Assembly: GCA_951406725.2 (NCBI GenBank)
Contig: OX597839.1
Coordinates: 33,728,001-33,792,000 of the forward strand
DNA length: 64,000 nucleotides
Reading direction: 5' to 3'
Origin: Octopus vulgaris
Lineage: Eukaryota
How positions within the stretch are numbered: position 1 is the stretch's first letter; the number at the start of each line of letters is the position of its first letter. Position numbers and translations under genes: made by a program. Positions 3,500 to 63,556 of the stretch are shown here, piece after piece. The notes beneath the pieces are model-generated. The model was not told where the DNA came from and searched no databases. It worked only from the letters and a program-made list of their open reading frames with translations.

Positions 3500-4582
3500 A
3501 TGAGCAGTGAACAAGGACATCATATTTCTCAGGAACGATTTATGCAAATCCGAGTTGATTTTAAAGAACACATGGACGATATCAGATCATTTTTAGATTT
3601 TGCTGTGCCCAGTGGTTTATTGACTGATAGACAGGAACATGAAATAAAGTCCAAAACAAATTCTGACGAGCAAACCCGAAAGTTACATGATTATATATTT
3701 AAAAAACTTCCGTATGATTCAGATAAATTGATGTCAGCCTTGAACGAGTCGGAACATTTTAAGATATTTGATCTTTTAGACGAAGTGACAGTCTACCCGA
3801 TGAAAAACAAACCACACGGTCGTGTTATATTAATAAATAACTTAAAATTTGACGATGGGAGTAAATACAATAAAAGGCTCGGAAGCGAAAAGGATGTGGA
3901 AGGTATCACGGAACTTTTCAAGGCTTTCAACTTCGAAGTTCGTTCTTATCTTAATAAAACAGCGGAAGAAATGAAAGATATAACTACAAAAGAAGCTTCA
4001 GAAAGTACAGCCAGTGAAGACTGTTTCGTTATGTTCTTCATGTCCCATGGGACTGTAGGGAATATCATTGGAACTGATGGTAAGGAATTATCTTATTCCA
4101 TTATTCATACCATTCTAAAGGAGAGTTCTCAGTTGAAAGACAAACCAAAGCTCATTTATGTAAACACTTGTCAAGTTAAACCTATGGTGGATAATGTCCC
4201 GAAAGGCACCGACGCTTCTTCAACTAAAGAAAATACTTGTCGAAGTGAAACTCAAGTCAAAGTTGACGCAGAATGTAGCAGCGCTGGCGAAAGTAATTCT
4301 GAAAAGGAATACATCGGGCAATATTTCAACGTTCCAGATCTCTATGTTACTTTTGCCACCGTTCCAGAAGGCATTAATTATCGAACTAAGGAAAGTGGTA
4401 CTGTTTTCATAAAAAGTTTAATCAGTGTTTATGAAACGAACAAAGATAGATGTGACATCTCATCATTATCATCTGATATAAATTCAGAACTTTCGAAGGA
4501 ATGCAAAGAGATTAACATGGATCAGGTTTCAAGTTGTTATTCCACCTTGAAGAGAAAGGTGATTCTTCGAGCCACAGATTAA
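3500..4582 (+). CDS. CARD-caspase paralog, class B, intact, 360 aa, catalytic His/Cys retained, long inter-subunit linker
   Basis: Divergent CARD. Motifs KRLGSEKD, FFMSHG, YVNTCQ, GINYRT, with both S1-pocket Arg equivalents present. Confidence 0.9.
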   Translation: MSSEQGHHISQERFMQIRVDFKEHMDDIRSFLDFAVPSGLLTDRQEHEIKSKTNSDEQTRKLHDYIFKKLPYDSDKLMSALNESEHFKIFDLLDEVTVYPMKNKPHGRVILINNLKFDDGSKYNKRLGSEKDVEGITELFKAFNFEVRSYLNKTAEEMKDITTKEASESTASEDCFVMFFMSHGTVGNIIGTDGKELSYSIIHTILKESSQLKDKPKLIYVNTCQVKPMVDNVPKGTDASSTKENTCRSETQVKVDAECSSAGESNSEKEYIGQYFNVPDLYVTFATVPEGINYRTKESGTVFIKSLISVYETNKDRCDISSLSSDINSELSKECKEINMDQVSSCYSTLKRKVILRATD

Positions 4583-5553: not shown

Positions 5554-5596
<43 letters not shown>

Positions 5597-5900: not shown

Positions 5901-6860
5901 TATCAACACAATTTTTTTCCCTTAATCCCTTATTTTTATTTCCCTTTTCTCTTTTTGTCTCTCTCCCCTTCTCCAAACACACAGACACACACACACGCAT
6001 GACATGACTTTTTCAAGGCTGACATCAACTCGTCTGAAACATTCCAAGTTCGACCGTCAAACTTAGATAAGTTCTATTGGTTTAACTCAGCATTTCGGGG
6101 TAAAATAGAGGTAAATAGAGATAAGCGAATTCATTTCCCATTCTACTCCGATCCACATTCAACAATCCAACATGTATAACTACGAATCCTCTCAGAATAT
6201 TCGGTAACAATCGTTTTCGCTTTCAGACGACGCACTCACAGTATTTTTAGCAAATCACTTCTTCCTAACATCCGCAACATCCGCAGTTATTACCAAACGT
6301 GCTCTCGTTTTGTCTTTGTTATTTTCGCCCTTAGCATTTTAAAACGGCCGACTGCCACAGCATTTTGTGTTCTGACAGTAACATCGAATTAACAGGAAAA
6401 TAAAATCTGTAAGAAACAGCTTCCTTCTTTCTCTTCATTTTTATGTTGCATGTTTCGCTGACCCACGAACATCAAATCTTCTCAGTGTAACACAATCGGT
6501 TAGAACTATGTGAAATGCGCATTTTCTAAAAGTATTCAGGTGAAACTATTTAATCGCTTGAACGACATGACTTTAAATATTTGTAGTTTCTTTGTTATTG
6601 GTTTCTAAAAGATAAAATAACTCTGATTTACGTCATCAGAGGAAAACTATCCAGAACTTTGAAGAAAATTTGATAGGTTGAAGGAAATTTAAGAAGAGCC
6701 ATTGAAATGTATAAGTTTGTAACCAGACTACATTACACGAAACGTTTATCTTCGTAAATCAGGAAGTTAAAAGGTGGACAGTTTGGCTTTCTTTTCTCGA
6801 GAAATAATTGCTATTATTTACAGTTTCACATTCTTGTAATATTAAAAATTTTATATAAAC

Positions 6861-7825: not shown

Positions 7826-7905
7826 CCAGATTCCGTCCCAATTCTCTCTTCTCCTTCTCTCATTAAAATATAAAGAAATTGAACAACAATAGTATGTACG
7901 TTAAA

Positions 7906-8317
<412 letters not shown>

Positions 8318-8522
8318 TTATATATATATATTATATATCTAGAAATTAGTGGTTAACTCTCTAATAATTTATGTATAAATTTGTATTTTCTCCGTAGTTT
8401 TTTGTGCTAAGCCACTCGGTGTTAAAATAATGGTATTATTAAATTAATATTAATTTTTCACCCTCATTTATAAATATTATATATATAGATATATTATATA
8501 CATATATATACACATACATATG

Positions 8523-9478: not shown

Positions 9479-9623
9479 AGACAGACGAGTTGTTTGTTAT
9501 TAGATAAGGACAATAACCATCTATAAACATTACGCCGCACTTTCGTACTTAAAGCAAAATGAGATATTTATATTTTTACTTATTATTTACTATTGTAGAA
9601 AGGAATTAATGATGGCATATTAT

Positions 9624-10645
9624 CAAATTTGAGTTTATTTTAAAGACTACATGCACGATATCGGATCATTTTTACATTTTGCTGTGTCCAGTGGTTTATT
9701 GACTGAGGGACATAGAGATGTAATAATGTCCGAAAGAAATCCTGACGAGCAAACCCGAAAGTTACATGATTATATATGTAAAAAACTTCCGGATGATTCA
9801 GATAAATTGATGTCAGCCTTGGAAGAGTCGGAACATTTTATGATATTTGGACTTTTAGACCGCAGGGTCGTGTTATATTAATAAATAATTTAAAATTTGA
9901 CGATGAGAAGAAATACAATGAAAGGCTCGGAAGCGAAAAGGATGTGGAAGGTATCACGGAACTTTTCAAGGCTTTCAATTTCGATGTTCAACTTTATTCA
10001 AATAAAACGGCCGAGGAAATGGAAGGAATAATTGAGAAAGCATCGCAGGAAAGTACAGCCAGTGAAGATTGTTTCGTTATGTTCTTGATGTCCCATGGTG
10101 TTAGAGGGAGTATCATTGGAACTGATGGTAAGGAATTATCTTATTCCATTATTAACGACGCTCTTAAGAAGAGGTCTCCGCTGAAAGACAAACCAAAGCT
10201 CATTTACGTAAATACTTATCAATTTAAACATGAGAAGGATAATGTCCCGAAAGGGACCGACGCTTGTTCAACTAAAGAAAATACTTGTCGAAGTGAAACT
10301 CAATTCAAAGTTGACGCAGAATGTAGCAGCGCTGTCGAAAGTAATTCTGAAAAGGAATACATCGGGCAATATTTCAACGTTCCAGATCTCTATGTTACTT
10401 TTGCCTCCGTTCCAGAAGGCCTTGCTTACCGAACTGAGGAAAGTGGTTCTTTTTTCATAAAAAGTCTAATCAGTGTTTATGAAAGGAACAAAGATAGATG
10501 TGACATCTCATCATTATCACTTGATATAAATTCAGAAGTTTCGAAGGATTGCAAAGAGATTCACATGGATCAGGATTCCAAGGATCAGGTTTCAAGTTAT
10601 TATTCCACCTTGAAGAGAAAGGTGATTCTTCGAGCAACAGATTAA
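9624..10645 (+). pseudogene. Chimeric CARD-caspase pseudogene: B-type CARD with a Cys>Tyr caspase half
   Basis: Promoter and first codons deleted (junction ggcatattat|caaatttga), CGA>TGA stop, ~31-bp frameshifting deletion near 9860, NTYQ codon at 10217, 15-bp duplication near 10560. Confidence 0.8.
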
Positions 10646-11545: not shown

Positions 11546-11723
11546 ACACATATATACATGTGGAGAGGGAAAATTTAAGATCTTTCCCTTCTACAAATGT
11601 CCGAGGAATATGGAAAAATATTTCATAGCTAAGTTCTCCTCCAAATTAAACGGCTGAAACTTTACTCATCATACATTGAAGGACAAATCTTTCGATTTAC
11701 AATATAATATAGTAGAACATTTA

Positions 11724-11763: not shown

Positions 11764-13281
11764 AGGTGTGTGTATATATATATTACCTGCTATATACATT
11801 ATATTGGTTTTGTAATTTACTTGATCTTTACTTGCCAATTGTCATTCTAATTTTAACCTTCCTATGATATGCAATTTTCAAGATGGTGTAATTTGATTGT
11901 TCATTTTGAATCGATAGAAGGTGGGTTTTTTCTAATATTTCATGTGTAATCATGTATATATATATATATTTATATATATATATATATATATATAGTGACA
12001 TTGAAGGACACATCTTTCGATTTACAATCTAATATAGAAGAACATTTAGTATATGTCTGTATATGTATATAATTGTGTGTGTGTGTATATATATATATAC
12101 ATTGCCTGTTATATGCATTATATTATTTTTATATTTTTATAATTTACTTCCATCTTCACTTTTTAATTGTCACTTTAATTTTAACTTTCCTATGATATAC
12201 AATTTTCAAGATGGTGTAATTTAGTTGTTCATTTTGAACCGATAAAAGGTTTTTTTTCAAATATTTCATGTATAAGTCTGTGTATATATATGTTGTGGTA
12301 TAAATATCAACACAATTTTTTTCCCCTTCCTCCCTTATTTTTATTTTCCCTTTTCTCTTTTTGTCTCTCTCCCCTTCTCCAAACACACAGACACACACAC
12401 ACAGACACACACACACGCATGACATGACTTTTTCAAGGCTGACATCAACTCGTCTGAAACATTCCAAGTTCGACCGTCAAACTTAGATAAGTTCTATTGG
12501 TTTAACTCAGCATTTCGGGGTAAAATAGAGGTAAATAGAGATAAGCGAATTCATTTCCCATTCTACTCCGATCCACATTCAACAATCCAACATGTATAAC
12601 TACGAATCCTCTCAGAATATTCGGTAACAATCGTTTTCGCTTTCAGACGACGCACTCACAGTATTTTTAGCAAATCACTTCTTCCTAACATCCGCAACAT
12701 CCGCAGTTATTACCAAACGTGCTCTCGTTTTGTCTTTGTTATTTTCGCCCTTAGCATTTTAAAACGGCCGACTGCCACAGCATTTTGTGTTCTGACAGTA
12801 ACATCGAATTAACAGGAAAATAAAATCTGTAAGAAACAGCTTCCTTCTTTTCTTCATTTTTATGTTGCATGTTTCGCTGACCCACGAACATCAAATCTTC
12901 TCAGTGTAACACAATCGGTTAGAACTATGTGAAATGCGCATTTTCTAAAAGTATTCAGGTGAAACTATTTAATCGCTTGAACGACATGACTTTAAATATT
13001 TGTAGTTTCTTTGTTATTGGTTTCTAAAAGAAAAAAATAACTCTGATTTACGTCATCAGAGGAAAACTATCCAGAACTTTGAAGAAAATTTGATAGGTTG
13101 AAGGAAATTTAAGAAGAGCCATTGAAATGTATAAGTTTGTAACCAGACTACATTACACGAAACGTTTATCTTCGTAAATCAGGAAGTTAAAAGGTGGACA
13201 GTTTGGCTTTCTTTTTCTCGTGAAAAAATTGTTATTATTTACAGTTTCACATTCTTGTAATATTAAAAATTTTATATAAAC

Positions 13282-14246: not shown

Positions 14247-14327
14247 CCAGATTCCGTCCCAATTCTCTCTTCTCCTTCTCTCATTAAAATATAAAGAAAT
14301 TGAACAACAATAGTATGTACGTTAAAT

Positions 14328-14939
<612 letters not shown>

Positions 14940-15141
14940 ATATATATATATATTATATATATAGAAATTAGTGGTTAACTCTCTAATAATTTATGTATAA
15001 ATTTGTATTTTCTCCGTAGGTTTTGTGCTAAGCCACTCGGTGTTAAATTAATGGTATTATTAAATTAATATTAATTTTTCACCCTCATTTATAAATATTA
15101 TGTATATAGATATATTATATACATATATATACACATACATA

Positions 15142-19129: not shown

Positions 19130-20263
19130 CATTGAAGGACACATTTTTCGATTTACAATCTAATATAGTAGAACATTTAGTATATGTCTGTATATGTATA
19201 TATATGTGTGTGTGTGTATATACATTGCCAGTTATATACATTATATTATTTTTATATTTTTATAATTTACTTCCATCTTCACTTTTTAATTGTCACTTTA
19301 ATTTTAACTTTCCTATGATATACAATTTTCAAGATGGTGTAATTTAGTTGTTCATTTTGAACCGATAAAAGGTTTTTTTTCAAATATTTCATGTATAAGT
19401 CTGTGTATATATATGTTGTGGTATAAATATCAACACAATTTTTTTCCCCTTCCTCCCTTATTTTTATTTTCCCTTTTCTCTTTTTGTCTCTCTCCCCTTC
19501 TCCAAACACACAGACACACACACACAGACACACACACACGCATGACATGACTTTTTCAAGGCTGACATCAACTCGTCTGAAACATTCCAAGTTCGACCGT
19601 CAAACTTAGATAAGTTCTATTGTTTAACTCAGCATTTCGGGGTAAAATAGAGGTAAATGGAGATAAGCGAATTCATTTCCCATTCTACTCCGATCCACAT
19701 TCAACAATCCAACATGTATAACTACGAATCCTCTCAGAATATTCGGTAACAATCGTTTTCGCTTTCAGACGACGCACTCACAGTATTTTTAGCAAATCAC
19801 TTCTTCCTAACATCCGCAACAGACGCAGTTATTACGAAACGTGCTCTCGTTTTGTCTTTGTTATTTTCGCCCTTAGCATTGTAAAACGGCCGACTGCCAC
19901 AGCATTTTGTATTCTGACACTAACATCGAATTAACAGGAAAATAAAATCTGTAAGAAACAGCTTCCTTCTTTCTCTTCATTTTTATGTTGCATGTTTCGC
20001 TGACCCACGAACATCAAATCTTCTCAGTGTAACACAATCGGTTAGAATTATGTGAAATGCGCATTTTCTAAAAGTATTCAGGTGAAACTATTTAATCGCT
20101 TGAATGACATGACTTTAAATATTTGTAGTTTCTTTGTTATTGGTTTCTAAAAGAAAAAAATAACTCTGATTTACGTCATCAGAGGAAAACTATCCAGAAC
20201 TTTGAAGAAAATTTGATTGGTTGAAGGAAATTTAACAAGAGCCATTGAAATATATGTGTTTTT

Positions 20264-21698: not shown

Positions 21699-23008
21699 CA
21701 TTGAAGGACACATTTTTCGATTTACAATCTAATATAGTAGAACATTTAGTATATGTCTGTATATGTATATATATGTGTGTGTGTATATATATAAATACAT
21801 TGCCTGTTATATGCATTATATTATTTTTATATTTTTATAATTTACTTCCATCTTCACTTTTTAATTGTCACTTTAATTTTAACTTTCCTATGATATACAA
21901 TTTTCAAGATGGTGTAATTTAGTTGTTCATTTTGAACCAATAAAAGGTTTTTTTTCAAATATTTCATGTATAAGTCTGTGTATATATATGTTGTGGTATA
22001 AATATCAACACAATTTTTTTTCCCTTCCTCCCTTATTTTTATTTTCCCTTTTCTCTTTTTGTCTCTCTCCCCTTCTCCAAACACACAGACACACACACAC
22101 AGACACACACACACGCATGACATGACTTTTTCAAGGCTGACATCAACTCATCTGAAACATTCCAAGTTCGACCGTCAAACTTAGATAAGTTCTATTGTTT
22201 AACTCAGCATTTCGAGGGTAAAATAGAGGTAAATGGAGATAAGCGAATTTATTTCCCATTCTACTCCGATCCACATTCAACAATCCAACATGTATAACTA
22301 CGAATCCTCTCAGAATATTCGGTAACAATCGTTTTCGCTTTCAGACGACGCACTCACAGTATTTTTAGCAAATCACTTCTTCCTAACATCCGCAACAGAC
22401 GCAGTTATTACGAAACGTGCTCTCGTTTTGTCTCTGTTATTTTCGCCCTTAGCATTGTAAAACGGCCGATTGCCACAGCATTTTGTGTTCTGATACTAAC
22501 ATCGAATTAACAGGAAAATAAAATCTGTAAGAAACAGCTTCCTTCTTTCTCTTCATTTTTATGTTGCATGTTTCGCTGACCCACGAACATCAAATCTTCT
22601 CAGTGTAACACAATCGGTTAGAACTATGTGAAATGCGCATTTTCTAAAAGTATTCAGGTGAAACTATTTAATCGCTTGAATGACATGACTTTAAATATTT
22701 GTAGTTTCTTTGTTATTGGTTTCTAAGAGAAAAAATAACTTTGATTTACGTCATCAGAGGAAAACTATCCAGAACTTTGAAGAAAATTTGATTGGTTGAA
22801 GGAAATTTAACAAGAGCCATTGAAATATATGTGTTTGTAAATAACTAGGCTCAGTTAATGAAGTCATCGAACTGAGCAGACTACATTACCCGAAACGTTT
22901 TTCTTCGTAAACCAGGAAGTGAAAGGGTGGACTGTTTTGCTTTTTTCTTTTCCAGGTAAAAATTGATATTTTTAGAGATTTATATTGTTTTCATATTAAG
23001 AACTTTAT

Positions 23009-24097
23009 ATGAGCATGAATGAAGACCGAGTATATTATATTTATAAGGATCAATTTCAAAAACTCCGAGTTGATTTTGTAAAACTCATGGACGATATCAA
23101 ATCATTTTTAGATGCAGCTTTATCCAATGGTTTGCTGACATATAGCCATAAAGAGAGCATAATATCTGAAAGAGATTCTAACGATCAGAAACGACGGTTA
23201 CACGAAATCCTAGGTAAGAAACTACCAGATGAGTCCCGTAAATTTGTGTCGGCTTTGGAAACGTCAAACCATAATAAAATTCTCGAGCTATTAGACGATC
23301 CGTCAGTCTACCCGATGAAATTCAAACTTCATGGTCGTGTTATATTAATAAATAATGTGAAATTTCCCGTTGGGAGTAACTACAATGAAAGGCTCGGAAG
23401 CGAAAAGGATGTGGAAGGTATCACGAAACTTTTCAAGGCTTTCAACTTCGATGTTCAACTTTATTCTAATAAAACGGCCGAGGAAATGGAAGGAATAATT
23501 GAGAAAGCATCGCAGGAAAGTACAGCCCGTGAAGATTGTTTCGTTATGTTCTTGATGTCCCATGGTGTTAGAGGGAGTATCATTGGAACTGATGGTAAGG
23601 AATTATCTTATTCCACTATTAACGACGCTCTAAAGAAGAGGTCTCCGCTGAAAGACAAACCAAAGCTCATTTACGTAAATACTTATCAATTTAAACATGA
23701 GAAGGATAATGTCCCGAAAGGCACCGACGTTTCTTCAACTAAAGAAAATACTTGTCGAAGTGAAACTCAAGTCAAAGTTGACGCAGAATGTAGCAGCGCT
23801 GTCGAAAGTAATTCTGAAAAGGAATACATCGGGCAATATTTCAACGTTCCAGATCTCTATGTTACTTTTGCCACCGTTCCAGAAGGCCTTGCTTACCGAA
23901 CTGAGGAAAGTGGTTCTTTTTTCATAAAAAGTTTAATCAGTGTTTATGAAAGGAACAAAGATAGATGTAACATCTCATCATTATCACTTCATATAAATTC
24001 AGAAGTTTCGAAGGAATGCAAAGAGATTTCCAAGGATCAGGTTTCAAGTTGTTATTCCACCTTGAAGAGAAAGGTGATTCTTCGAGCCACAGATTAA
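23009..24097 (+). CDS. CARD-pseudocaspase, class D (D1), intact ORF, 362 aa, catalytic Cys>Tyr
   Basis: MSHG; YVNTYQ with TAT at 23684-23686. Confidence 0.88.
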   Translation: MSMNEDRVYYIYKDQFQKLRVDFVKLMDDIKSFLDAALSNGLLTYSHKESIISERDSNDQKRRLHEILGKKLPDESRKFVSALETSNHNKILELLDDPSVYPMKFKLHGRVILINNVKFPVGSNYNERLGSEKDVEGITKLFKAFNFDVQLYSNKTAEEMEGIIEKASQESTAREDCFVMFLMSHGVRGSIIGTDGKELSYSTINDALKKRSPLKDKPKLIYVNTYQFKHEKDNVPKGTDVSSTKENTCRSETQVKVDAECSSAVESNSEKEYIGQYFNVPDLYVTFATVPEGLAYRTEESGSFFIKSLISVYERNKDRCNISSLSLHINSEVSKECKEISKDQVSSCYSTLKRKVILRATD

Positions 24098-24740: not shown

Positions 24741-25051
24741 TTATATATATATATATTCATATGTGGACGGCACCCACTTCTGTTATTTTTTTCAGAATCC
24801 CCCCATTCTGTAAAAAAAAAACCCCCAAAAAAAGCCAAGTGGAATCGGTCTGCATTCTTTAAGTCCGCTTTATATGTGTGTCTCTGTATAAATATAATTG
24901 TCGCATTTAATCAAATTTCATTACACCGATCGTTTTTGCCTTCGCAAACCAGGAAGTGAAACGGTTGACTCTTTAGCTTTTTATTCCCGATGAATATTGA
25001 TATTTTTTTTACAGATTTCTATTATTTTAATATCTATAATTTTATATAAAC

Positions 25052-25149
25052 GTGAGCAGTGAAGAAGAAGTACATCATATTTCTCAGGAACGATTTATGC
25101 AAACCCGAGTTTATTTTGTAAAACCCGTGGACGATCTCGGATCATTTTC
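25052..25149 (+). pseudogene. B-type CARD N-terminal fragment with a GTG start
   Basis: SSEEEVHHISQERFMQTRVYFVKPVDDLGSF matches the class B N-terminus, then fuses to the intergenic module. Confidence 0.75.
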
Positions 25150-26251
25150 CTATGATATACAATTTTCAAGATGGTGTAATTTAGTTGTTCATTTTGAACC
25201 GATAAAAGTTTTTTTTTCAAATATTTCATGTATAAGTCTGTGTATATATATGTTGTGGTATAAATATCAACACAATTTTTTTCCCTTCCTCCCTTATTTT
25301 TAGTTTCCTTTTCTCTTTTTGTCTCTCTCCCCTTCTCCAAACACACAGACACAGACACACGCATGACATGACTTTTTCAAGGCTGACATCAACTCGTCTG
25401 AAACATTCCAAGTTCGACCGTCAAACTTAGATAAGTTCTATTGTTTAACTCAGCATTTCGGGGTAAAATAGAGGTAAATGGAGATAAGCGAATTCATTTC
25501 CCATTCTACTCCGATCCACATTCAACAATCCAACATGTATAACTACAAATCCTCTCAGAATATTCGGTAACAATCGTTTTCGCTTTCAGACGACGCACTC
25601 ACAGTATTTTTAGCAAATCACTTCTTCCTAACATCCGCAACAGACGCAGTTATTACGAAACGTGCTCTCGTTTTGTCTCTGTTATTTTCGCCCTTAGCAT
25701 TGTAAAACGGCCGATTGCCACAGCATTTTGTGTTCTGATACTAACATCGAATTAACAGGAAAATAAAATCTGTAAGAAACAGCTTCCTTCTTTCTCTTCA
25801 TTTTTATGTTGCATGTTTCGCTGACCCACGAACATCAAATCTTCTCAGTGTAACACAATCGGTTAGAACTATGTGAAATGCGCATTTTCTAAAAGTATTC
25901 AGGTGAAACTATTTAATCGCTTGAACGACATGACTTTAAATATTTGTAGTTTCTTTGTTATTGGGTTCTAAGAGAAAAAATAACTTTGATTTACGTCATC
26001 AGAGGAAAACTATCCAGAACTTTGAAGAAAATTTGATTGGTTGAAGGAAATTTAACAAGAGCCATTGAAATATGTGTTTGTAAATAACTAGGCTCAGTTA
26101 ATGAAGTCATCGAACTGAGCAGACTACATTACCCGAAACGTTTTTCTTCGTAAACCAGGAAGTGAAAGGGTGGACTGTTTTGCTTTTTTCTTCTCCAGGT
26201 AAAAATTGATATTTTTAGAGATTTATATTGTTTTCATATTAAGAACTTTAT

Positions 26252-27990: not shown

Positions 27991-28278
27991 TATGTGGACG
28001 GCACCCACTTCTGTTATTTTTTTCAGAATCCCCCATTCTGTAAAAAAAAACAAAAAAAAAAGCCAAGTGGAATCGGTCTGCATTCTTTAAGTCCGCTTTA
28101 TATGTGTGTCTCTGTATAAATATAATTGTCGCATTTAATCAAATTTCATTACACCGATCGTTTTTGCCTTCGCAAACCAGGAAGTGAAACGGTTGACTCT
28201 TTAGCTTTTTATTCCCGATGAATATTGATATTTTTTTACAGATTTCTATTATTTTAATATCTATAATTTTATATAAAC

Positions 28279-28376
28279 GTGAGCAGTGAACAAGAAGTAC
28301 ATCATATTTCTCAGGAACGATTTATGCAAATCCGAGTTTATTTTGTAAAACCCGTGGACGATCTCGGATCATTTTC
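28279..28376 (+). pseudogene. B-type CARD N-terminal fragment (GTG start)
   Basis: As at 25052. Confidence 0.75.
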
Positions 28377-29483
28377 CTATGATATACAATTTTCAAGATG
28401 GTGTAATTTAGTTGTTCATTTTGAACCGATAAAAGTTTTTTTTTTCAAATATTTCATGTATAAGTCTGTGTATATATATGTTGTGGTATAAATATCAACA
28501 CAATTTTTTTCCCCTTCCTCCCTTATTTTTAGTTTCCCTTTTCTCTTTTTGTCTCTCTCCCCTTCTCCAAACACACAGACACAGACACACGCATGACATG
28601 ACTTTTTCAAGGCTGACATCAACTCGTCTGAAACATTCCAAGTTCGACCGTCAAACTTAGATAAGTTCTATTGTTTAACTCAGCATTTCGGGGTAAAATA
28701 GAGGTAAATGGAGATAAGCGAATTCATTTCCCATTCTACTCCGATCCACATTCAACAATCCAACATGTCTAACTTCGAATCCTCTCAGAATATTCGGTAA
28801 CAATCGTTTTCGCTTTCAGACGACGCACTCACAGTATTTTTAGCAAATCACTTCTTCCTAACATCCGCAACAGACGCAGTTATTACGAAACGTGCTCTCG
28901 TTTTGTCTTTGTTATTTTCGCCCTTAGCATTGTAAAACGGCCGACTGCCACAGCATTTTGTGTTCTGATACTAACATCGAATTAACAGGAAAATAAAATC
29001 TGTAAGAAACAGCTTCCTTCTTTCTCTTCATTTTTATGTTGCATGTTTCGCTGACCCACGAACATCAAATCTTCTCAGTGTAACACAATCGGTTAGAACT
29101 ATGTGAAATGCGCATTTTCTAAAAGTATTCAGGTGAAACTATTTAATCGCTTGAACGACATGACTTTAAATATTTGTAGTTTCTTTGTTATTGGTTTCTA
29201 AAAGAAAAAATAACTCTGATTTACGTCATCAGAGGAAAACTATCCAGAACTTTGAAGAAAATTTGATTGGTTGAAGGAAATTTAACAAGAGCCATTGAAA
29301 TATATGTGTTTGTAAATAACTAGGCTCAGTTAATGAAGTCATCGAACTGAGCAGACTACATTACCCGAAACGTTTCTCTTCGTAAACCAGGAAGTGAAAG
29401 GGTGGACTGTTTTGCTTTTTTCTTTTCCAGGTAAAAATTGATATTTTTAGAGATTTATATTGTTTTCATATTAAGAACTTTAT

Positions 29484-35173: not shown

Positions 35174-36308
35174 CATTGAAGGACACATTTTTCGATTTAC
35201 AATCTAATATAGTAGAACATTTAGTATATGTCTGTATATGTATATATATGTGTGTGTGTGTATATACATTGCCAGTTATATACATTATATTATTTTTATA
35301 TTTTTATAATTTACTTCCATCTTCACTTTTTAATTGTCACTTTAATTTTAACTTTCCTATGATATACAATTTTCAAGATGGTATAATTTAGTTGTTCATT
35401 TTGAACCGATAAAAGGTTTTTTTTTCAAATATTTCATGTATAAGTCTGTGTATATATATGTTGTGGTATAAATATCAACACAATTTTTTTCCCCTTCCTC
35501 CCTTATTTTTATTTTCCCTTTTCTCTTTTTGTCTCTCTCCCCTTCTCCAAACACACAGACACACACACACAGACACACACACACGCATGACATGACTTTT
35601 TCAAGGCTGACATCAACTCGTCTGAAACATTCCAAGTTCGACCGTCAAACTTAGATAAGTTCTATTGTTTAACTCAGCATTTCGGGGTAAAATAGAGGTA
35701 AATGGAGATAAGCGAATTCATTTCCCATTCTACTCCGATCCACATTCAACAATCCAACATGTATAACTACGAATCCTCTCAGAATATTCGGTAACAATCG
35801 TTTTCGCTTTCAGACGACGCACTCACAGTATTTTTAGCAAATCACTTCTTCCTAACATCCGCAACAGACGCAGTTATTACGAAACGTGCTCTCGTTTTGT
35901 CTTTGTTATTTTCGCCCTTAGCATTGTAAAACGGCCGACTGCCACAGCATTTTGTATTCTGACACTAACATCGAATTAACAGGAAAATAAAATCTGTAAG
36001 AAACAGCTTCCTTCTTTCTCTTCATTTTTATGTTGCATGTTTCGCTGACCCACGAACATCAAATCTTCTCAGTGTAACACAATCGGTTAGAATTATGTGA
36101 AATGCGCATTTTCTAAAAGTATTCAGGTGAAACTATTTAATCGCTTGAATGACATGACTTTAAATATTTGTAGTTTCTTTGTTATTGGTTTCTAAAAGAA
36201 AAAAATAACTCTGATTTACGTCATCAGAGGAAAACTATCCAGAACTTTGAAGAAAATTTGATTGGTTGAAGGAAATTTAACAAGAGCCATTGAAATATAT
36301 GTGTTTTT

Positions 36309-37717: not shown

Positions 37718-39025
37718 CATTGAAGGACACATTTTTCGATTTACAATCTAATATAGTAGAACATTTAGTATATGTCTGTATATGTATATATATGTGTGTG
37801 TGTATATATATAAATACATTGCCTGTTATATGCATTATATTATTTTTATATTTTTATAATTTACTTCCATCTTCACTTTTTAATTGTCACTTTAATTTTA
37901 ACTTTCCTATGATATACAATTTTCAAGATGGTGTAATTTAGTTGTTCATTTTGAACCAATAAAAGGTTTTTTTTCAAATATTTCATGTATAAGTCTGTGT
38001 ATATATATGTTGTGGTATAAATATCAACACAATTTTTTTTCCCTTCCTCCCTTATTTTTATTTTCCCTTTTCTCTTTTTGTCTCTCTCCCCTTCTCCAAA
38101 CACACAGACACACACACACAGACACACACACACGCATGACATGACTTTTCAAGGCTGACATCAACTCATCTGAAACATTCCAAGTTCGACCGTCAAACTT
38201 AGATAAGTTCTATTGTTTAACTCAGCATTTCGGGGTAAAATAGAGGTAAATGGAGATAAGCGAATTTATTTCCCATTCTACTCCGATCCACATTCAACAA
38301 TCCAACATGTATAACTACGAATCCTCTCAGAATATTCGGTAACAATCGTTTTCGCTTTCAGACGACGCACTCACAGTATTTTTAGCAAATCACTTCTTCC
38401 TAACATCCGCAACAGACGCAGTTATTACGAAACGTGCTCTCGTTTTGTCTCTGTTATTTTCGCCCTTAGCATTGTAAAACGGCCGATTGCCACAGCATTT
38501 TGTGTTCTGATACTAACATCGAATTAACAGGAAAATAAAATCTGTAAGAAACAGCTTCCTTCTTTCTCTTCATTTTTATGTTGCATGTTTCGCTGACCCA
38601 CGAACATCAAATCTTCTCAGTGTAACACAATCGGTTAGAACTATGTGAAATGCGCATTTTCTAAAAGTATTCAGGTGAAACTATTTAATCGCTTGAATGA
38701 CATGACTTTAAATATTTGTAGTTTCTTTGTTATTGGTTTCTAAGAGAAAAAATAACTTTGATTTACGTCATCAGAGGAAAACTATCCAGAACTTTGAAGA
38801 AAATTTGATTGGTTGAAGGAAATTTAACAAGAGCCATTGAAATATATGTGTTTGTAAATAACTAGGCTCAGTTAATGAAGTCATCGAACTGAGCAGACTA
38901 CATTACCCGAAACGTTTTTCTTCGTAAACCAGGAAGTGAAAGGGTGGACTGTTTTGCTTTTTTCTTTTCCAGGTAAAAATTGATATTTTTAGAGATTTAT
39001 ATTGTTTTCATATTAAGAACTTTAT

Positions 39026-40765: not shown

Positions 40766-41077
40766 TTATATATATATATATTCATATGTGGACGGCACCC
40801 ACTTCTGTTATTTTTTTTCAGAATCCCCCATTCTGTAAAAAAAAAACCCCCCAAAAAAAAGCCAAGTGGAATCGGTCTGCATTCTTTAAGTCCGCTTTAT
40901 ATGTGTGTCTCTGTATAAATATAATTGTCGCATTTAATCAAATTTCATTACACCGATCGTTTTGCCTTCGCAAACCAGGAAGTGAAACGGTTGACTCTTT
41001 AGCTTTTTATTCCCGATGAATATTGATATTTTTTTTACAGATTTCTATTATTTTAATATCTATAATTTTATATAAAC

Positions 41078-41174
41078 GTGAGCAGTGAAGAAGAAGTACA
41101 TCATATTTCTCAGGAACGATTTATGCAAACCCGAGTTTATTTTGTAAAACCCGTGGACGATCTCGGATCATTTT
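41078..41174 (+). pseudogene. B-type CARD N-terminal fragment (GTG start)
   Basis: As at 25052. Confidence 0.75.
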
Positions 41175-42279
41175 CCTATGATATACAATTTTCAAGATGG
41201 TGTAATTTAGTTGTTCATTTTGAACCGATAAAAGTTTTTTTTTTCAAATATTTCATGTATAAGTCTGTGTATATATATGTTGTGGTATAAATATCAACAC
41301 AATTTTTTCCCCTTCCTCCCTTATTTTTAGTTTCCCTTTTCTCTTTTTGTCTCTCTCCCCTTCTCCAAACACACACACACAGACACACGCATGACATGAC
41401 TTTTTCAAGGCTGACATCAACTCGTCTGAAACATTCCAAGTTCGACCGTCAAACTTAGATAAGTTCTATTGTTTAACTCAGCATTTCGGGGTAAAATAGA
41501 GGTAAATGGAGATAAGCGAATTCATTTCCCATTCTACTCCGATCCACATTCAACAATCCAACATGTATAACTACAAATCCTCTCAGAATATTCGGTAACA
41601 ATCGTTTTCGCTTTCAGACGACGCACTCACAGTATTTTTAGCAAATCACTTCTTCCTAACATCCGCAACAGACGCAGTTATTACGAAACGTGCTCTCGTT
41701 TTGTCTCTGTTATTTTCGCCCTTAGCATTGTAAAACGGCCGATTGCCACAGCATTTTGTGTTCTGATACTAACATCGAATTAACAGGAAAATAAAATCTG
41801 TAAGAAACAGCTTCCTTCTTTCTCTTCATTTTTATGTTGCATGTTTCGCTGACCCACGAACATCAAATCTTCTCAGTGTAACACAATCGGTTAGAACTAT
41901 GTGAAATGCGCATTTTCTAAAAGTATTCAGGTGAAACTATTTAATCGCTTGAACGACATGACTTTAAATATTTGTAGTTTCTTTGTTATTGGGTTCTAAG
42001 AGAAAAAATAACTTTGATTTACGTCATCAGAGGAAAACTATCCAGAACTTTGAAGAAAATTTGATTGGTTGAAGGAAATTTAACAAGAGCCATTGAAATA
42101 TGTGTTTGTAAATAACTAGGCTCAGTTAATGAAGTCATCGAACTGAGCAGACTACATTACCCGAAACGTTTTTCTTCGTAAACCAGGAAGTGAAAGGGTG
42201 GACTGTTTTGCTTTTTTCTTCTCCAGGTAAAAATTGATATTTTTAGAGATTTATATTGTTTTCATATTAAGAACTTTAT

Positions 42280-44137: not shown

Positions 44138-44443
44138 TTATATATATATATATTCATATGTGGACGGCACCCACTTCTGTTATTTTTTTCAGAATCCCCC
44201 ATTCTGTAAAAAACTCAAAAAAATTGCCAAGTGGAATCGGTCTGCATTCTTTAAGTCCGCTTTATATGTGTGTCTCTGTATAAATATAATTGTCGCATTT
44301 AATCAAATTTCATTACACCGATCGTTTTTGCCTTCGCAAACCAGGAAGTGAAACGGTTGACTCTTTAGCTTTTTATTCCCGATGAATATTGATATTTTTT
44401 TACAGATTTCTATTATTTATAATATCTATAATTTTATATAAAC

Positions 44444-44541
44444 GTGAGCAGTGAACAAGAAGTACATCATATTTCTCAGGAACGATTTATGCAAATCCGA
44501 GTTTATTTTGTAAAACCCGTGGACGATCTCGGATCATTTTC
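44444..44541 (+). pseudogene. B-type CARD N-terminal fragment (GTG start)
   Basis: As at 25052. Confidence 0.75.
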
Positions 44542-45644
44542 CTATGATATACAATTTTCAAGATGGTGTAATTTAGTTGTTCATTTTGAACCGATAAAAG
44601 TTTTTTTTTCAAATATTTCATGTATAAGTCTGTGTATATATATGTTGTGGTATAAATATCAACACAATTTTTTTCCCTTCCTCCCTTATTTTTAGTTTTC
44701 CTTTTCTCTTTTTGTCTCTCTCCCCTTCTCCAAACACACAGACACAGACACACGCATGACATGACTTTTTCAAGGCTGACATCAACTCGTCTGAAACATT
44801 CCAAGTTCGACCGTCAAACTTAGATAAGTTCTATTGTTTAACTCAGCATTTCGGGGTAAAATAGAGGTAAATGGAGATAAGCGAATTCATTTCCCATTCT
44901 ACTCCGATCCACATTCAACAATCCAACATGTATAACTACAAATCCTCTCAGAATATTCGGTAACAATCGTTTTCGCTTTCAGACGACGCACTCACAGTAT
45001 TTTTAGCAAATCACTTCTTCCTAACATCCGCAACAGACGCAGTTATTACGAAACGTGCTCTCGTTTTGTCTCTGTTATTTTCGCCCTTAGCATTGTAAAA
45101 CGGCCGATTGCCACAGCATTTTGTGTTCTGATACTAACATCGAATTAACAGGAAAATAAAATCTGTAAGAAACAGCTTCCTTCTTTCTCTTCATTTTTAT
45201 GTTGCATGTTTCGCTGACCCACGAACATCAAATCTTCTCAGTGTAACACAATCGGTTAGAACTATGTGAAATGCGCATTTTCTAAAAGTATTCAGGTGAA
45301 ACTATTTAATCGCTTGAACGACATGACTTTAAATATTTGTAGTTTCTTTGTTATTGGGTTCTAAGAGAAAAAATAACTTTGATTTACGTCATCAGAGGAA
45401 AACTATCCAGAACTTTGAAGAAAATTTGATTGGTTGAAGGAAATTTAACAAGAGCCATTGAAATATGTGTTTGTAAATAACTAGGCTCAGTTAATGAAGT
45501 CATCGAACTGAGCAGACTACATTACCCGAAACGTTTTTCTTCGTAAACCAGGAAGTGAAAGGGTGGACTGTTTTGCTTTTTTCTTCTCCAGGTAAAAATT
45601 GATATTTTTAGAGATTTATATTGTTTTCATATTAAGAACTTTAT

Positions 45645-47451: not shown

Positions 47452-47755
47452 TTATATATATATATATTCATATGTGGACGGCACCCACTTCTGTTATTTT
47501 TTTCAGAATCCCCCATTCTGTAAAAAAAAAAAAAAAAAGCCAAGTGGAATCGGTCTGCATTCTTTAAGTCCGCTTTATATGTGTGTCTCTGTATAAATAT
47601 AATTGTCGCATTTAATCAAATTTCATTACACCGATCGTTTTTGCCTTCGCAAACCAGGAAGTGAAACGGTTGACTCTTTAGCTTTTTATTCCCGATGAAT
47701 ATTGATATTTTTTTACAGATTTCTATTATTTTAATATCTATAATTTTATATAAAC

Positions 47756-47853
47756 GTGAGCAGTGAACAAGAAGTACATCATATTTCTCAGGAACGATTT
47801 ATGCAAATCCGAGTTTATTTTGTAAAACCCGTGGACGATCTCGGATCATTTTC
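47756..47853 (+). pseudogene. B-type CARD N-terminal fragment (GTG start)
   Basis: As at 25052. Confidence 0.75.
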
Positions 47854-48961
47854 CTATGATATACAATTTTCAAGATGGTGTAATTTAGTTGTTCATTTTG
47901 AACCGATAAAAGTTTTTTTTTTCAAATATTTCATGTATAAGTCTGTGTATATATATGTTGTGGTATAAATATCAACACAATTTTTTTCCCCTTCCTCCCT
48001 TATTTTTAGTTTCCCTTTTCTCTTTTTGTCTCTCTCCCCTTCTCCAAACACACAGACACAGACACACGCATGACATGACTTTTTCAAGGCTGACATCAAC
48101 TCGTCTGAAACATTCCAAGTTCGACCGTCAAACTTAGATAAGTTCTATTGTTTAACTCAGCATTTCGGGGTAAAATAGAGGTAAATGGAGATAAGCGAAT
48201 TCATTTCCCATTCTACTCCGATCCACATTCAACAATCCAACATGTCTAACTTCGAATCCTCTCAGAATATTCGGTAACAATCGTTTTCGCTTTCAGACGA
48301 CGCACTCACAGTATTTTTAGCAAATCACTTCTTCCTAACATCCGCAACAGACGCAGTTATTACGAAACGTGCTCTCGTTTTGTCTTTGTTATTTTCGCCC
48401 TTAGCATTGTAAAACGGCCGACTGCCACAGCATTTTGTGTTCTGATACTAACATCGAATTAACAGGAAAATAAAATCTGTAAGAAACAGCTTCCTTCTTT
48501 CTCTTCATTTTTATGTTGCATGTTTCGCTGACCCACGAACATCAAATCTTCTCAGTGTAACACAATCGGTTAGAACTATGTGAAATGCGCATTTTCTAAA
48601 AGTATTCAGGTGAAACTATTTAATCGCTTGAACGACATGACTTTAAATATTTGTAGTTTCTTTGTTATTGGTTTCTAAAAGAAAAAAATAACTCTGATTT
48701 ACGTCATCAGAGGAAAACTATCCAGAACTTTGAAGAAAATTTGATTGGTTGAAGGAAATTTAACAAGAGCCATTGAAATATATGTGTTTGTAAATAACTA
48801 GGCTCAGTTAATGAAGTCATCGAACTGAGCAGACTACATTACCCGAAACGTTTCTCTTCGTAAACCAGGAAGTGAAAGGGTGGACTGTTTTGCTTTTTTC
48901 TTTTCCAGGTAAAAATTGATATTTTTAGAGATTTATATTGTTTTCATATTAAGAACTTTAT

Positions 48962-54970: not shown

Positions 54971-55602
54971 CATCCCAATCCTTCCCCAATATTTCCACCT
55001 CCCCTGCCAGTAAATGTGACCCACCCTTTGCATACAGTTCCAGCATCACCATTGCTCTATCTCTTCTTCTCTTCACCCAACAACTATTCACCTTATTTTC
55101 TATCTTATTCAATGCAATTTGTCTCTCATACTTTCCTTTCTTGTCAAATTACCAACATTTTCAATGAGTTTATCCAATATTCTTGCACACCCACACACAG
55201 GCATATCCAATATTCTTGCAAACAAAACATTCCTTTAGTCTCGAAGGAAATACACTTAAGCAAGATGGTTGCAATTCCCAGAATGGTGACATTCCTGTTT
55301 CTCTGTCAGTTTATGAAAGGAGTTTCCAGATTCCCCTCCAGGTAAGCATTGCATGTCCTGAATGTCCCCTGGAAAAGACTGATCTCAATTCAACTGCAAC
55401 CAATATTTTAAGGGCACGGTCTGACGTCAGTGTCCTTTCACTGGAAGATGTGAATTTAGATCACTTTAACCCTTTTGTTACCATATTTATGTTGAAATAA
55501 ACTGATTTTGTTTAAATTAACTCTGAAAATAGTCAAGAATTAAGTAAAACAGCTGTTCTCAGGAACCCAAATGAACATGAAACATTAATGGAAAGTTTTA
55601 AC

Positions 55603-55965
55603 TGACCAACCACATGGTTCCGGGTTCAGTCCCACTGCGTGGCATCTTGAGCAAGTGTCTTCTGCTATGGCCCCGGGCCGACCAATGCCTTGTAAGTGGA
55701 TTTGGTAGACGGAAACTGAAAAAGCCTGTCGTATATATGTATATATATATATATGTATATGTGTGTGTTTGTGTGTCTGTGTTTGTCCCCTAGCATTGCT
55801 TGACAACCGATGCTGTTGTGTTTATGTCCCCGTCACTTAGCGGTTCGGCAAAATGAGACCGATAGAATAAGTACTGGGCTTACAAAGGATAAGTCCTGGG
55901 GTCAATTTGCTCGACTAAAAGGCGGTGCTCCAGAATGGCCGCAGTCAAATGACTGAAACAAGTCA
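55603..55965 (+). mobile_element. 5'-truncated CORE-type (OR-like) SINE
   Basis: Homologous to 58632-59037. Confidence 0.8.
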
Positions 55966-56159
55966 ATGATAAATGATAGTGAGATCTTTAGAAAATGGAA
56001 TCTTTATGACGGAACCAGGGTTGAACTCAGCCAAGCATCCTCGCCACAGTCCCCTAATTTTCGACAAAATTACTTGTGGGGGCAGGATATCCCTCTTAAT
56101 CCTTGCCTTCCTTTTCCTGAAGAGGAAAGTGTATGTTTTCAGTCATGTCACTCCTCTCC

Positions 56160-58460: not shown

Positions 58461-58631
58461 TAATCGACTTTGATAAAACTTTTCCCAGCTGGTTTGCACA
58501 CTATGGCAACACCATTGTTATGTTTTCATTATTCTCTGTAACATCCTTTCTTTTCTATTTCAAATTCTTTGGTTTTGGGGTGGAACACACTAATTGCTTT
58601 TGAAAGAAAATAACCTGTTTCAGAAAATGAA

Positions 58632-59037
58632 GGCGCAGGAGTGGCTGTGTGGTATGTAGCTTGCTAACCAACCACATGGTTGCGGGTTCAGTCCCACTGC
58701 ATGGCATCTTGGGCAAGTGTCTTCTGCTATAGCCCCGGGCCAACCAATGCCTTGTGAGTGGATTTGGTAGACGGAAACTGAAAGAAGCCTGTCATATATA
58801 TGTATATATATATATATGTATGTTTGTGTGTCTGTGTTTGTCTCCCTAGCATTGCTTGACAACCGATGCTGGTGTGTTTATGTCCCCGTCACTTAGCGGT
58901 TCGGCAAAAGATACCGATAGAATAAGTACTGGGCTTACAAAGAATAAGTCCCGGGGTTGATTTGCTCAGCTAAAAGGCGGTGCTCCAGCATGGCCGCAGT
59001 CAAATGACTGAAACAAGTAAAAGAGTAAAAGAGAGTA
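58632..59037 (+). mobile_element. Full-length tRNA-derived CORE-type (OR-like) SINE
   Basis: A box tggctgtgtggt, B box ggttcagtccc, CORE-like cttgggcaagtgtcttct, tail ...aaacaagtaaaagagtaaaa. Confidence 0.85.
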
Positions 59038-60844: not shown

Positions 60845-61600
60845 AGCACTCCGTCGGTTACGACGACGAGGGTTCCGGTTGATCCGAATCAATGGAACAG
60901 CCTGCTCGTGAAATTAACGTGCAAGTGGCTGAGCACTCCACAGACACGTGTACCCTTAACGTAGTTCTCGGGGATATTCAGCGTGACATAGAGAGTGACC
61001 TTTGAAATACAGGTACAACAGAAACAGGAAGTAAGAGTGAGAGAAAGTTGTGGTGAAAGAGTACAGCAGGGATCACCACCATCCCTGCCGGAGCCTCGTG
61101 GAGCTTTTAGGTGTTTTCTATCAATAAACACTATCAATAAAGGCGCAGGAGTGGCTGTGTGGTAAGTAGCTTGCTAACCAACCACATGGTTCCGGGTTCA
61201 GTCCCACTGCGTGGCATCTTGGGCAAGTGTCTTCTGCTATAGCCCCGGGCCGACCAATGCCTTGTGAGTGGATTTGGTAGACGGAAACTGAAAGAAGCCT
61301 GTCGTATATATGTATATATATATGTGTGTGTTTGTATGTGTTTGTGTTTGTCCCCCTAGCATTGCCTGACAACCGATGCTGGTGTGTTTACGTCCCCGTT
61401 ACTTAGCGGTTCGGCAAAAGAGACCGATAGAATAAGTACTGGGCTTACAAAGAATAAGTCCCGGGATCGATTTGCTCGACTAAAGGCGGTGCTCCAGCAT
61501 GGCCGCAGTCAAATGACTGAAACAAGTAAAAGAGTAAACACTCACAACGCCCGGTCTGGGAATCGAACCCTCGTCGTCGTAACCGACGGAGTACTAACAT
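60845..61600 (-). mobile_element. Third SINE family (Nin/Deu-like core) with a rearranged 5' end, hosting a nested OR-like SINE
   Basis: Minus-strand B box ggttcgattccc and core ...gccacttgcacgttaa; 28-bp perfect inverted ends. Confidence 0.6.
61142..61534 (+). mobile_element. Full-length CORE-type (OR-like) SINE, nested
   Basis: Near-identical to the 58632 copy; TSD taaacact at 61125 and 61535. Confidence 0.85.
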
Positions 61601-61603
61601 TCC

Positions 61604-62065
61604 ATTAGAATAAAGTTGAACATCGAAATTGAAAGCCTTGAAAAGTTCCCTGATACCTTCCACATCCTTTTCGCTTCCGAGCCTTTCATTGTATTTACTC
61701 CCAACGGGAAATTTCACATTATTTATTAATATAACACGACCATGAAGTTTGAATTTCATCGGGTAGACTGACGGATCGTCTAATAGCTCGAGAATTTTAT
61801 TATGGTTTGACTTTTTCAAAGCCGACACAAATTTACGGGACTCATCTGGTAGTTTCTTACCTAGGATTTCGTGTAACCGTCGTTTCTGATCGTTAGAATC
61901 TCTTTCAGACATTATGCTCTCTTTATGGCTATATGTCAGCAAACCATTGGATAAAGCTGCATCTAAAAATGATTTGATATCGTCCATGAGTTTTACAAAA
62001 TCAACTCGGAGTTTTTGAAATTGATCCTTAGAAATATAATATACTTGGTCGTCATTCATGCTCAT
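61604..62065 (-). pseudogene. Inverted class D-like CARD-caspase truncated after codon 154; the ORF reads on into SINE sequence to 61445
   Basis: MSMNDDQVYY...[10 protein letters not shown] followed by non-caspase sequence. The upstream module is intact at ~62066-62900. Confidence 0.8.
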
Positions 62066-62906
62066 ATAAAGTTCTTAATATGAAAACAATATAAATCTCT
62101 AAAAATATAAATTTTTACCTGGAAAAGAAAAATGCAAAACAGTCCACCCTTTCACTTCCTGGTTTACGAAGAAAAACGTTTCGGGTATTGTAGTCTGCTC
62201 AGTTCGATGACTTCATTAACTGAGCCTAGTTATTTACAAACATATATATTTCAATGGCTCTTGTTAAATTTCCTTCAACCAATCAAATTTTCTTCAAAGT
62301 TCTGGATAGTTTTCCTCTGATGACGTAAATCAGAGTTATTTTTTTCTTTTAGAAACCAATAACAAAGAAACTACAAATATTTAAAGTCATGTCATTCAAG
62401 CGATTAAATAGTTTCACCTGAATACTTTTAGAAAATGCGCATTTCACATAGTTCTAACCGATTGTGTTACACTGAGAAGATTTGATGTTCGTGGGTCAGC
62501 GAAACATGCAACATAAAAATGAAGAGAAAGAAGGAAGCTGTTTCTTACAGATTTTATTTTCCTGTTAATTCGATGTTAGTATCAGAACACAAAATGCTGT
62601 GGCAGTCGGCCGTTTTACAATGCTAAGGGCGAAAATAACAAAGACAAAACGAGAGCACGTTTGGTAATAACTGCGTCTGTTGCGGATGTTAGGAAGAAGT
62701 GATTTGCTAAAAATACTGTGAGTGCGTCGTCTGAAAGCGAAAACGATTGTTACCGAATATTCTGAGAGGATTCGTAGTTAGACATGTTGGATTGTTGAAT
62801 GTGGATCGGAGTAGAATGGGAAATGAATTCGCTTATCTCCATTTACCTCTATTTTACCCCGAAATGCTGAGTTAAACCAATAGAACTTATCTAAGTTTGA
62901 CGGTCG

Positions 62907-63052
62907 AACTTGGAATGTTTCAGATGAGTTGATGTCAGCCTTGAAAAAGTCATGTCATGTTGAGATATTTATTTGATCTAAAAGATCAAATATCTTAAAA
63001 TGTTTCGATTTTTTCAAGGCTGACATCAATTAATCTGAAACATTCGGAAGTT
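62907..63052. other. Fold-back hairpin (~70-bp arms, 3-nt loop at 62980-62982) derived from CARD coding sequence
   Basis: Left arm aacttggaatgtttcagatgagttgatgtcagccttgaaaaagtc...atttgatct pairs with agatcaaat...gattttttcaaggctgacatcaattaatctgaaacattcggaagtt. Confidence 0.8.
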
Positions 63053-63260
63053 TCTTGAATATATAATCATGTAACTTTCGTATTTGGTGGTCAGTTTTTC
63101 TTTCGGACATTATTCCATTTTTATATCCCTCAGTCAATAAACCATTGGATAAAGCATGATCTAAAAATGATCCGATATCGTCCACGGGTTTTACAAAATA
63201 AACTCGGGTTTGCATAAATCGTTCCATAGAAATATGATCTACTTCTTGTTCACTGCTCAC
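62955..63260 (-). pseudogene. B-type CARD-only sequence (GTG start, AAA>TAA at 63030-63032) ending in the fold-back
   Basis: SSEQEVDHISMERF...KKLPNVSD*LMSALKKSKHFKIFDLLDQINIST*. Confidence 0.75.
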
Positions 63261-63556
63261 GTTTATATAAAATTATAGATATTAAAATAATAGAAATCTG
63301 TAAAAAAATATCAATATTCATCGGGAATAAAAAGCTAAAGAGTCAACCGTTTCACTTCCTGGTTTGCGAAGGCAAAAACGATCGGTGTAATGAAATTTGA
63401 TTAAATGCGACAATTATATTTATACAGAGACACACATATAAAGCGGACTTAAAGAATGCAGACCGATTCCACTTGGCTTTTTTTTGGGGGGGTTTTTTTT
63501 TACAGAATGGGGGATTCTGAAAAAAAATAACAGAAGTGGGTGCCGTCCACATATGA

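Follow-up and report, generated by a model that had tools for sequence, protein, structure and literature searches.

A fold-back hairpin in a CARD-caspase array of Octopus vulgaris is probably a template-switch scar

The long hairpin that lies near the end of a CARD-caspase array in Octopus vulgaris is probably a template-switch inverted duplication that persists as a scar in a CARD-caspase paralog turned pseudogene, without a present small-RNA function. It was found in a stretch of 64,000 nucleotides (hereafter the window) made up of a tandem array of ORFs with CARD and caspase domains, whose nearest named relatives are Octopus proteins; no paper on this array was among the literature matches listed. 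The window holds 16 CARD loci, of which 14 are ATG-initiated on the + strand, one is a broken B-like copy (hereafter B′) and one is a truncated C-type gene on the − strand. From 61604 to its end the window is occupied by a repeat unit in inverted copy, which contains the hairpin (Table 1). Since the window stops at 64000 within this inverted block, further intact copies of the hairpin may exist outside it. A 400-nt repeat is present in three copies (55602-55973, 58626-59029 and 61136-61538; 91-94% identity), the last of which adjoins the point (61604) at which the inverted C-type gene is cut off.

The hairpin has the form that the initial annotation had described, with arms of 73 and 70 nt and a loop of 3 nt. 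Aligned to each other, the arms are identical at 59 of 69 positions, with 10 mismatches and gaps of 1 nt and 4 nt. Folding of both strands, the check proposed at the time, gave minimum free energies of −75.3 (+) and −63.0 (−) kcal/mol with z-scores of −13.3 and −12.2, and none of 200 shuffles per strand was as stable on either. The original arm and two loop bases (72 nt) differ from gene B by seven mismatches.

Table 1. Positions of the hairpin, its parts and related features in the window
Feature	Positions	Strand	Remarks
Tandem CARD-caspase array	257-53525 (+), 61604-62065 (−)		Related expansion in O. sinensis and O. bimaculoides
Gene B, stretch homologous to the arms	3705..3780	+	No other intact gene in the window is a potential near-complementary target
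Broken B-like CARD copy (pseudogene B′)	near 9560-10645		
B′ (broken), stretch homologous to the arms	9784..9859	+	
Downstream C-type CARD-caspase gene	61604..62065	−	Truncated at 61604
Whole imperfect hairpin	62907..63052		62 pairs (+), 59 pairs (−); longest helix 25 bp (+), 20 bp (−)
Original arm, 70 nt	62983..63052	−	3′ end of CARD coding sequence, sense on −
Loop, 3 nt	62980..62982		TTT (−) / AAA (+); between TCT 62985-62983 and AGA 62979-62977, both matching parental sequence
Copied (fold-back) arm, 73 nt	62907..62979	−	Antisense to CARD on −
AATAAA in copied arm	62968..62973	−	Overlaps the arm's 4-nt insertion
CGACCGTCA, putative switch-back point	62898..62906	−	Resumed parental continuation CGA(T)CCGTCA (D-D-P-S)
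Second small snap-back, outer junction	62890..62914		11-bp stem including 2 G-T pairs, 3-nt loop
CARD-only pseudo-ORF, 101 codons	62955..63260	−	GTG for ATG at 63260; tail DLLD-QINIST-stop inside copied arm
In-frame TAA, codon 77	63030..63032	−	K in gene B and O. sinensis P0010
T-rich ACAG, splice-acceptor-like (putative)	63298..63309	−	Also 5′ of A and B genes
GGAAGTGAAA module, putative promoter	63350..63359	−	Common to paralogs
Arm remnant 1 of 11	5998..6050	+	
Arm remnant 2 of 11	12418..12470	+	
Arm remnant 3 of 11	19541..19593	+	
Arm remnant 4 of 11	22116..22168	+	
Arm remnant 5 of 11	25362..25414	+	Module and 5′ pseudo-CARD kept, 24891-25148
Arm remnant 6 of 11	28592..28644	+	5′ pseudo-CARD part 28119-28375
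Arm remnant 7 of 11	35586..35638	+	
Arm remnant 8 of 11	38135..38186	+	
Arm remnant 9 of 11	41390..41442	+	5′ pseudo-CARD part 40918-41174
Arm remnant 10 of 11	44755..44807	+	5′ pseudo-CARD part 44283-44540
Arm remnant 11 of 11	48069..48121	+	5′ pseudo-CARD part 47596-47852

On the − strand the CARD runs into GATCT-TTT-AGA, then into a backward copy of about 70 nt and from there into CGACCGTCA. The TCT-TTT-AGA at the turn, previously put forward as a micro-hairpin able to prime its own fold-back, is indeed present in gene B (3772-3780). Stems of such a kind (at least 3 bp, 3-nt loop) occur at 21 of 1063 gene B positions, and at 145 of 1063 when loops of 0-6 nt are admitted, a microhomology score for the first switch that was taken on a cousin of the parent and not on the true parent. 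After the same AGA the C-type genes continue with CGATCCGTCA (D-D-P-S), with which the hairpin junction agrees at 9 of 10 bases. This match was spotted by eye before it was tested post hoc against four paralog continuations with one deletion allowed (31 9-mers); its chance at a fixed position is ~5e-5 and none of 14982 background positions carried it. The snap-back pattern at the outer junction is found at 0.1-0.3% of background positions. The micro-hairpin at the turn and the parental continuation beyond the copied arm give further backing to self-primed fold-back, and with the second snap-back they argue for a template-switch origin of this stable structure. Overall, the junction anatomy suggests that copying switched template and came back, and that the caspase domain was lost afterwards.

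Three of four features tested for the template-switch class were found, namely an adjacent inverted copy, microhomology at the first switch and a return to the template. A candidate for the pre-event allele in an outgroup is O. sinensis P0010, a predicted and possibly chimeric model seen as protein only, whose CARD runs into DDPSVY. Template switching is described as a single step that makes an inverted copy and returns, creating hairpins from unstructured sequence (PMC10710096). Fold-back inverted insertions are reported at DNA breaks in yeast (PMC11724301), and two base pairs are reported to suffice for Pol theta to extend a stem-loop (PMC11292364).

If the fold-back arose in a CARD-caspase gene, which one was the parent? 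A B-type CARD following gene B had been proposed, and although gene B does carry the TCT-TTT-AGA, the pseudo-CARD read through its stop is nearest to O. sinensis P0010 (88% identity), with O. bimaculoides P0014 at 73% and gene B at only 61%. Judged by sequence, gene B is closely related to the parent but is not the parent itself. The pseudo-CARD and P0010 have N-V-S-D-K-L-M-S-A-L-K-K in common, after which P0010 continues with D-D-P-S-V-Y, as the junction remnant predicts. Several sister database models look chimeric (P0008 has three CARD starts; P0002, P0004 and P0009 mix CARD and caspase types), and P0010 may therefore be no intact parent but a spliced model. As a separate observation, the pseudo-CARD (62977-63260, −) and the gene B CARD (3500-3780, +) differ by 38 non-synonymous and 5 synonymous changes, a dN/dS of ~2.0 in a rough NG86 count compared with 0.42-0.68 in five other pairs; diversifying selection on the B-clade CARDs, or else conversion, is possible.

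The fate of the hairpin is recorded in its sister units. Among the 12 units in this window that bear the junction, one has the hairpin intact, while the other 11 have lost all of it but the outer 53 nt of the copied arm and share its downstream junction. In every one of the 11 the break lies at the same point and leads into a segment with a CA repeat at its end, which indicates one loss followed by amplification and not 11 independent losses. The upstream module and the first 97 nt of the pseudo-CARD are retained in 5 of these 11, the 97-nt pieces meeting the final ~213 nt of the CA-repeat-ended segment in a shared TTT. Near 16352, 32419 and 51904 the upstream module is joined straight to spacer (the unit at 16352, which was inspected, is B-type). 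The arm remnants differ from the intact copy at 0-1 of 53 positions and the spacer at 3-9 of 567, and by this measure the arm is no better conserved than the spacer. A segment of 860 nt with an internal 300-nt direct repeat (~80% identical) was also observed, at 5140-5997 with copies at 11552, 18648, 21227, 34716 and 37250; it replaces the pseudo-CARD and one arm in six units and, within the window, occurs only in broken units.

The two arms have diverged unequally. Both share four states unlike gene B, and of the eight substitutions that could be assigned, seven lie in the copied arm (p=0.07; two more are ambiguous), as do both indels; the branch of the copied arm is 0.27 long against 0.04 for the other. 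This 7:1 asymmetry and the long branch mean that a template-switch scar needs an extra assumption, either that synthesis was error-prone, that the sense arm underwent conversion or that coding constraint acted in the past. It also counts against a scar that the intact copy survives with a nearly perfect outer stem of 45 bp. The longest perfect run between the arms is 20 nt, which is at chance level (P 0.19-0.68 for 12 to 7 events). Changes compatible with G-U pairing number four on the + strand and one on the − strand (p=0.375, not significant), and with fewer of them the − strand, the one proposed earlier, folds worse. Descent of the A-to-G changes in the copied arm from an A-to-I edited retrocopy was considered and dropped, the changes being few and transcription of the + strand being needed.

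From the anatomy, the junction sequences, the copy counts and the divergence we infer an order of events, an enzymology and the absence of a function. A nascent or broken strand with TCT-TTT-AGA at its end, in a paralog belonging to the P0010 lineage, would have folded back through its 3-bp stem and served as primer for ~70 nt of copying in reverse, after which polymerisation would have returned to the original template for ~9 nt. A further brief snap-back and fusion to spacer DNA from a distant site would then have removed the caspase domain. Substitutions and indels would have built up in the copied arm, with the CARD losing its ATG and gaining a stop. Finally, a single later event may have broken the hairpin in one copy, the broken form being amplified to 11 units and the intact form remaining single in the window.

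Two other readings are compatible with such a scar. The first, possible but on balance unlikely, is that the hairpin acts as an incidental ADAR or dsRNA substrate within read-through or intronic RNA, without a dedicated role. An uninterrupted helix of 20-25 bp would suit this, the database gene model P0008 spans neighbouring paralogs, and octopus editing is reported to lie mostly in introns and in 3′UTRs with hairpins (PMC9699675). However, A-type genes are followed directly on their 3′ side by longer inverted pairs, whose arms measure 105-223 nt and are 91-92% complementary, and the hairpin is therefore not special as dsRNA. These pairs flank TA microsatellites 3′ of three A-type genes (1299-1763, 7889-8334 and 14323-14944) and, by their sequence, would be better candidates for dsRNA or ADAR substrates than the hairpin. 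With regard to P0008, strong donor-like sites (CTAG/GTAAGA) were observed within C-type CARDs, e.g., at 23009-23300, together with an acceptor-like site just 5′ of the start of the next gene, and the model links its three CARD starts via such sites. Joining of this type could be either true multi-CARD splicing over paralogs or an annotation artefact.

The second compatible reading, which we consider doubtful, is that the fold-back cut the gene right after the CARD and that the unit encoded a CARD-only decoy, a dominant-negative protein, before it died. Today the CARD lacks the intact ORF that a gene for a CARD-only protein should have, showing instead a GTG start and a TAA at codon 77, and the open 65-aa piece matches the Pfam CARD model with E=0.006, below the cut-off. 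In favor of a former decoy, the break falls where the CARD ends, and a tail of seven residues, a stop codon and an AATAAA at 62973 come next. The original arm is also little changed: its single assignable change is synonymous and it equals P0010 residue for residue except for the stop. CARD-only proteins are known, moreover, from the mammalian caspase-1 cluster. Against this, the GTG is common to five partial pseudo-CARD copies and the first Met of P0010 lies further on, which suggests that the start may have disappeared early. A search among proteins of 55-177 aa gave no CARD-only relative, AATAAA is a frequent hexamer here (four in 1.8 kb, the next on the − strand at 62558), and conversion from paralogs accounts equally well for the arm asymmetry.

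Elsewhere in the array, three of eight full-length ORFs checked (17022, 23009 and 33090) read VNTYQ instead of VNTCQ, so that Tyr replaces the presumed catalytic Cys while SHG is kept, and on this basis are candidate pseudo-caspase decoys. Compared with intact copies that are nearly identical to them, paralogs at 6861-7496, 13282-13917, 26252, 39026, 42280 and 45645 carry truncations or frameshifts and are either real pseudogenes or leftover assembly indels.

A regulatory role for the hairpin depends on transcription, and on this point the initial annotation had noted a B-type upstream module near 63350-63360. The GGAAGTGAAA module is present but is not specific to B, standing upstream of all B- and C-type genes aligned and, as the one-base variant GGAAGTTAAA, of the three A-type genes. 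We also observed CAGGAAGTGAAA, which resembles an ETS-IRF composite element, before each gene (e.g., 3410-3419), and TGACGTCA, which is CRE-like, just upstream in gene B and in the unit at 16230; the hairpin unit is without TGACGTCA. No GGAAGTG module was found on the + strand between 62000 and 64000. Should transcription of the − strand start from the inherited module, the copied arm would serve as antisense guide, and if the AATAAA at 62973 is used, a − strand transcript would end before the outer stem can form.

The proposal that small RNAs from the hairpin act against the whole family did not hold: 22-mers within two mismatches of either arm exist in only 2 of the 16 CARD loci, gene B and the pseudogene B′. 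None of the 52 22-mers of the copied arm has fewer than two mismatches to any of the 16 loci; at two mismatches eight reach gene B and six reach B′, and the other 14 loci are at least four mismatches away. Were the + strand transcribed, the original arm would provide 19 of 49 22-mers within two mismatches of gene B, one of them perfect. The case for a regulatory hairpin is weak.

Within it, the better of two routes, though itself improbable, is a target-derived proto-miRNA transcribed on the − strand from the GGAAGTGAAA module, with an outer stem cut by Drosha and Dicer-1 and a 3′ arm product antisense to the B-type CARD. The stem is stable on both strands, and the coding region of gene B contains a 7-mer seed site for the modelled 3p product; seed sites were nevertheless found in none of the six downstream 400-nt regions for each of four modelled products. 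Of the processing motifs looked at (basal UG, loop UGU/G and 3′ CNNC; PMC6943042), CNNC is present at +12 and +16 on the − strand, the latter 16 nt beyond the modelled Drosha cut, and is absent from the + strand, while UG is absent at the one basal position checked. The geometry fits poorly: a stem of ~60 bp (59-62 pairs) with a 3-nt loop compares with a reported preference for 35 bp and a loop of at least 10 nt (PMC10710096), and the modelled precursor is 122 nt long with its duplex strands 78 nt apart. The antisense arm is, moreover, the decayed one. At least 18 human miRNA genes are reported to have been made by template switches, but from more than 6000 template-switch hairpins (PMC10710096).

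None of the 27 Rfam matches between 61000 and 64000 reaches its gathering score; the matches that cover the hairpin come from generic plant MIR models, the best of them MIR868 with 42.7 of 200 bits. The octopus miRNA set is reported to be expanded in a survey that, as described there, required presence in two species and omits species-specific genes, so that a young locus would be left out (PMC9699675). O. vulgaris small-RNA libraries covering 18 tissues as well as embryos exist (PMC9699675). Motifs from the arms had no match in any full-text paper or in the supplements of PMC9699675 and PMC11701709, which are not miRNA sequence lists and whose silence does not show absence. Should the intact copy, against expectation, be transcribed and its 45-bp outer stem be cut by Drosha and a single Dicer to a small RNA antisense to the B-type CARD-caspase, it would represent a plant-style, target-derived microRNA born by one template switch in an animal lineage without the siRNA pathway. 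Its birth junctions would still be legible and its loss recorded in 11 sister units, and an expanding cell-death or immune gene family could be said to generate its own repressor without Dicer-2.

It is likewise improbable that the copied arm came from another, inverted paralog rather than from self fold-back. The long branch of the copied arm would fit such a source, as would a tree of the arms (70 columns) in which they are not resolved as sisters and the B clade is unresolved. Yet the homologous base at which the arms stop is one and the same, with AGA as their overlap, they share the four states that set them apart from gene B, and the parental continuation resumes after the arm.

A Drosophila-type hpRNA, giving endo-siRNAs that slice caspase mRNAs, is very improbable. 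The hairpin is an inverted duplication of a would-be target with a long imperfect stem, and on a + strand transcript the original arm would reach gene B as described above. However, hpRNAs are defined by Dcr-2-dependent siRNAs (PMC10317233), and the hpRNA/siRNA role suggested initially meets a lineage in which DICER2 and siAGO are reported lost (Mollusca; PMC11114477) and in which a survey of 32 molluscs, including O. bimaculoides, reports no evidence of endo-siRNAs (PMC12479628). Mammals are reported to make endo-siRNAs with their miRNA enzymes (PMC11114477), so the siRNA route is not closed. At 14 of 16 loci every 22-mer has at least four mismatches, and the + strand has no module of its own in the stretch searched. 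What the hairpin shares with hpRNAs is a long imperfect fold-back homologous to targets, here the B-type loci only (2 of 16); on the − strand the guide arm has not kept its complementarity. The hairpin should be classed neither as an hpRNA nor as a miRNA.

Long reads can contain fold-back chimeras and the copy sits in an inverted block at the window edge, but a sequencing or assembly artefact can be dismissed, given that the same arm end and junction recur in 11 other units and that arms differing by 10 substitutions and two indels are not those of a folded-back read.

Read as a template-switch scar, the locus is a worked example in which priming stem, copied arm, switch-back and second snap-back can all be made out, and the scar is a marker for the history of the Octopus caspase array. 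Plant MIRNA genes are born by inverted duplication of their target genes, with more drift near the loop; their long stems are diced and near-perfect targets are sliced. The octopus hairpin is like them in its origin in target coding sequence and in its greater drift near the loop, whereas it lacks the geometry for animal Drosha and its perfect core is no longer than chance. CARD16, CARD17 and CARD18 are CARD-only proteins of the caspase-1 cluster and so, like the hairpin unit, CARD-only derivatives in a tandem caspase cluster, but the octopus unit has lost its start, has an in-frame stop and was truncated by a fold-back. Drosophila hpRNAs are also imperfect inverted repeats homologous to a gene family, yet they need Dcr-2 (PMC10317233), and here the would-be guide arm has decayed and two of 16 loci are reached. 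The fold-backs of yeast (PMC11724301) and Pol theta (PMC11292364) resemble the octopus event in being self-primed from a few bp with the other end joined with little homology. The yeast inverted insertions measure from 10 to >150 bp and use an imperfect 10-bp repeat with a 41-nt loop (PMC11724301), whereas the octopus event is fixed in the germ line. Template-switch hairpins (PMC10710096) likewise combine a one-step inverted copy with a return to the template, and cases of several switches are mentioned among them. Known from its sequence alone, the octopus hairpin differs in that its template was a CARD coding exon of a tandem family, copied over ~70 nt, and in that the caspase domain was lost.
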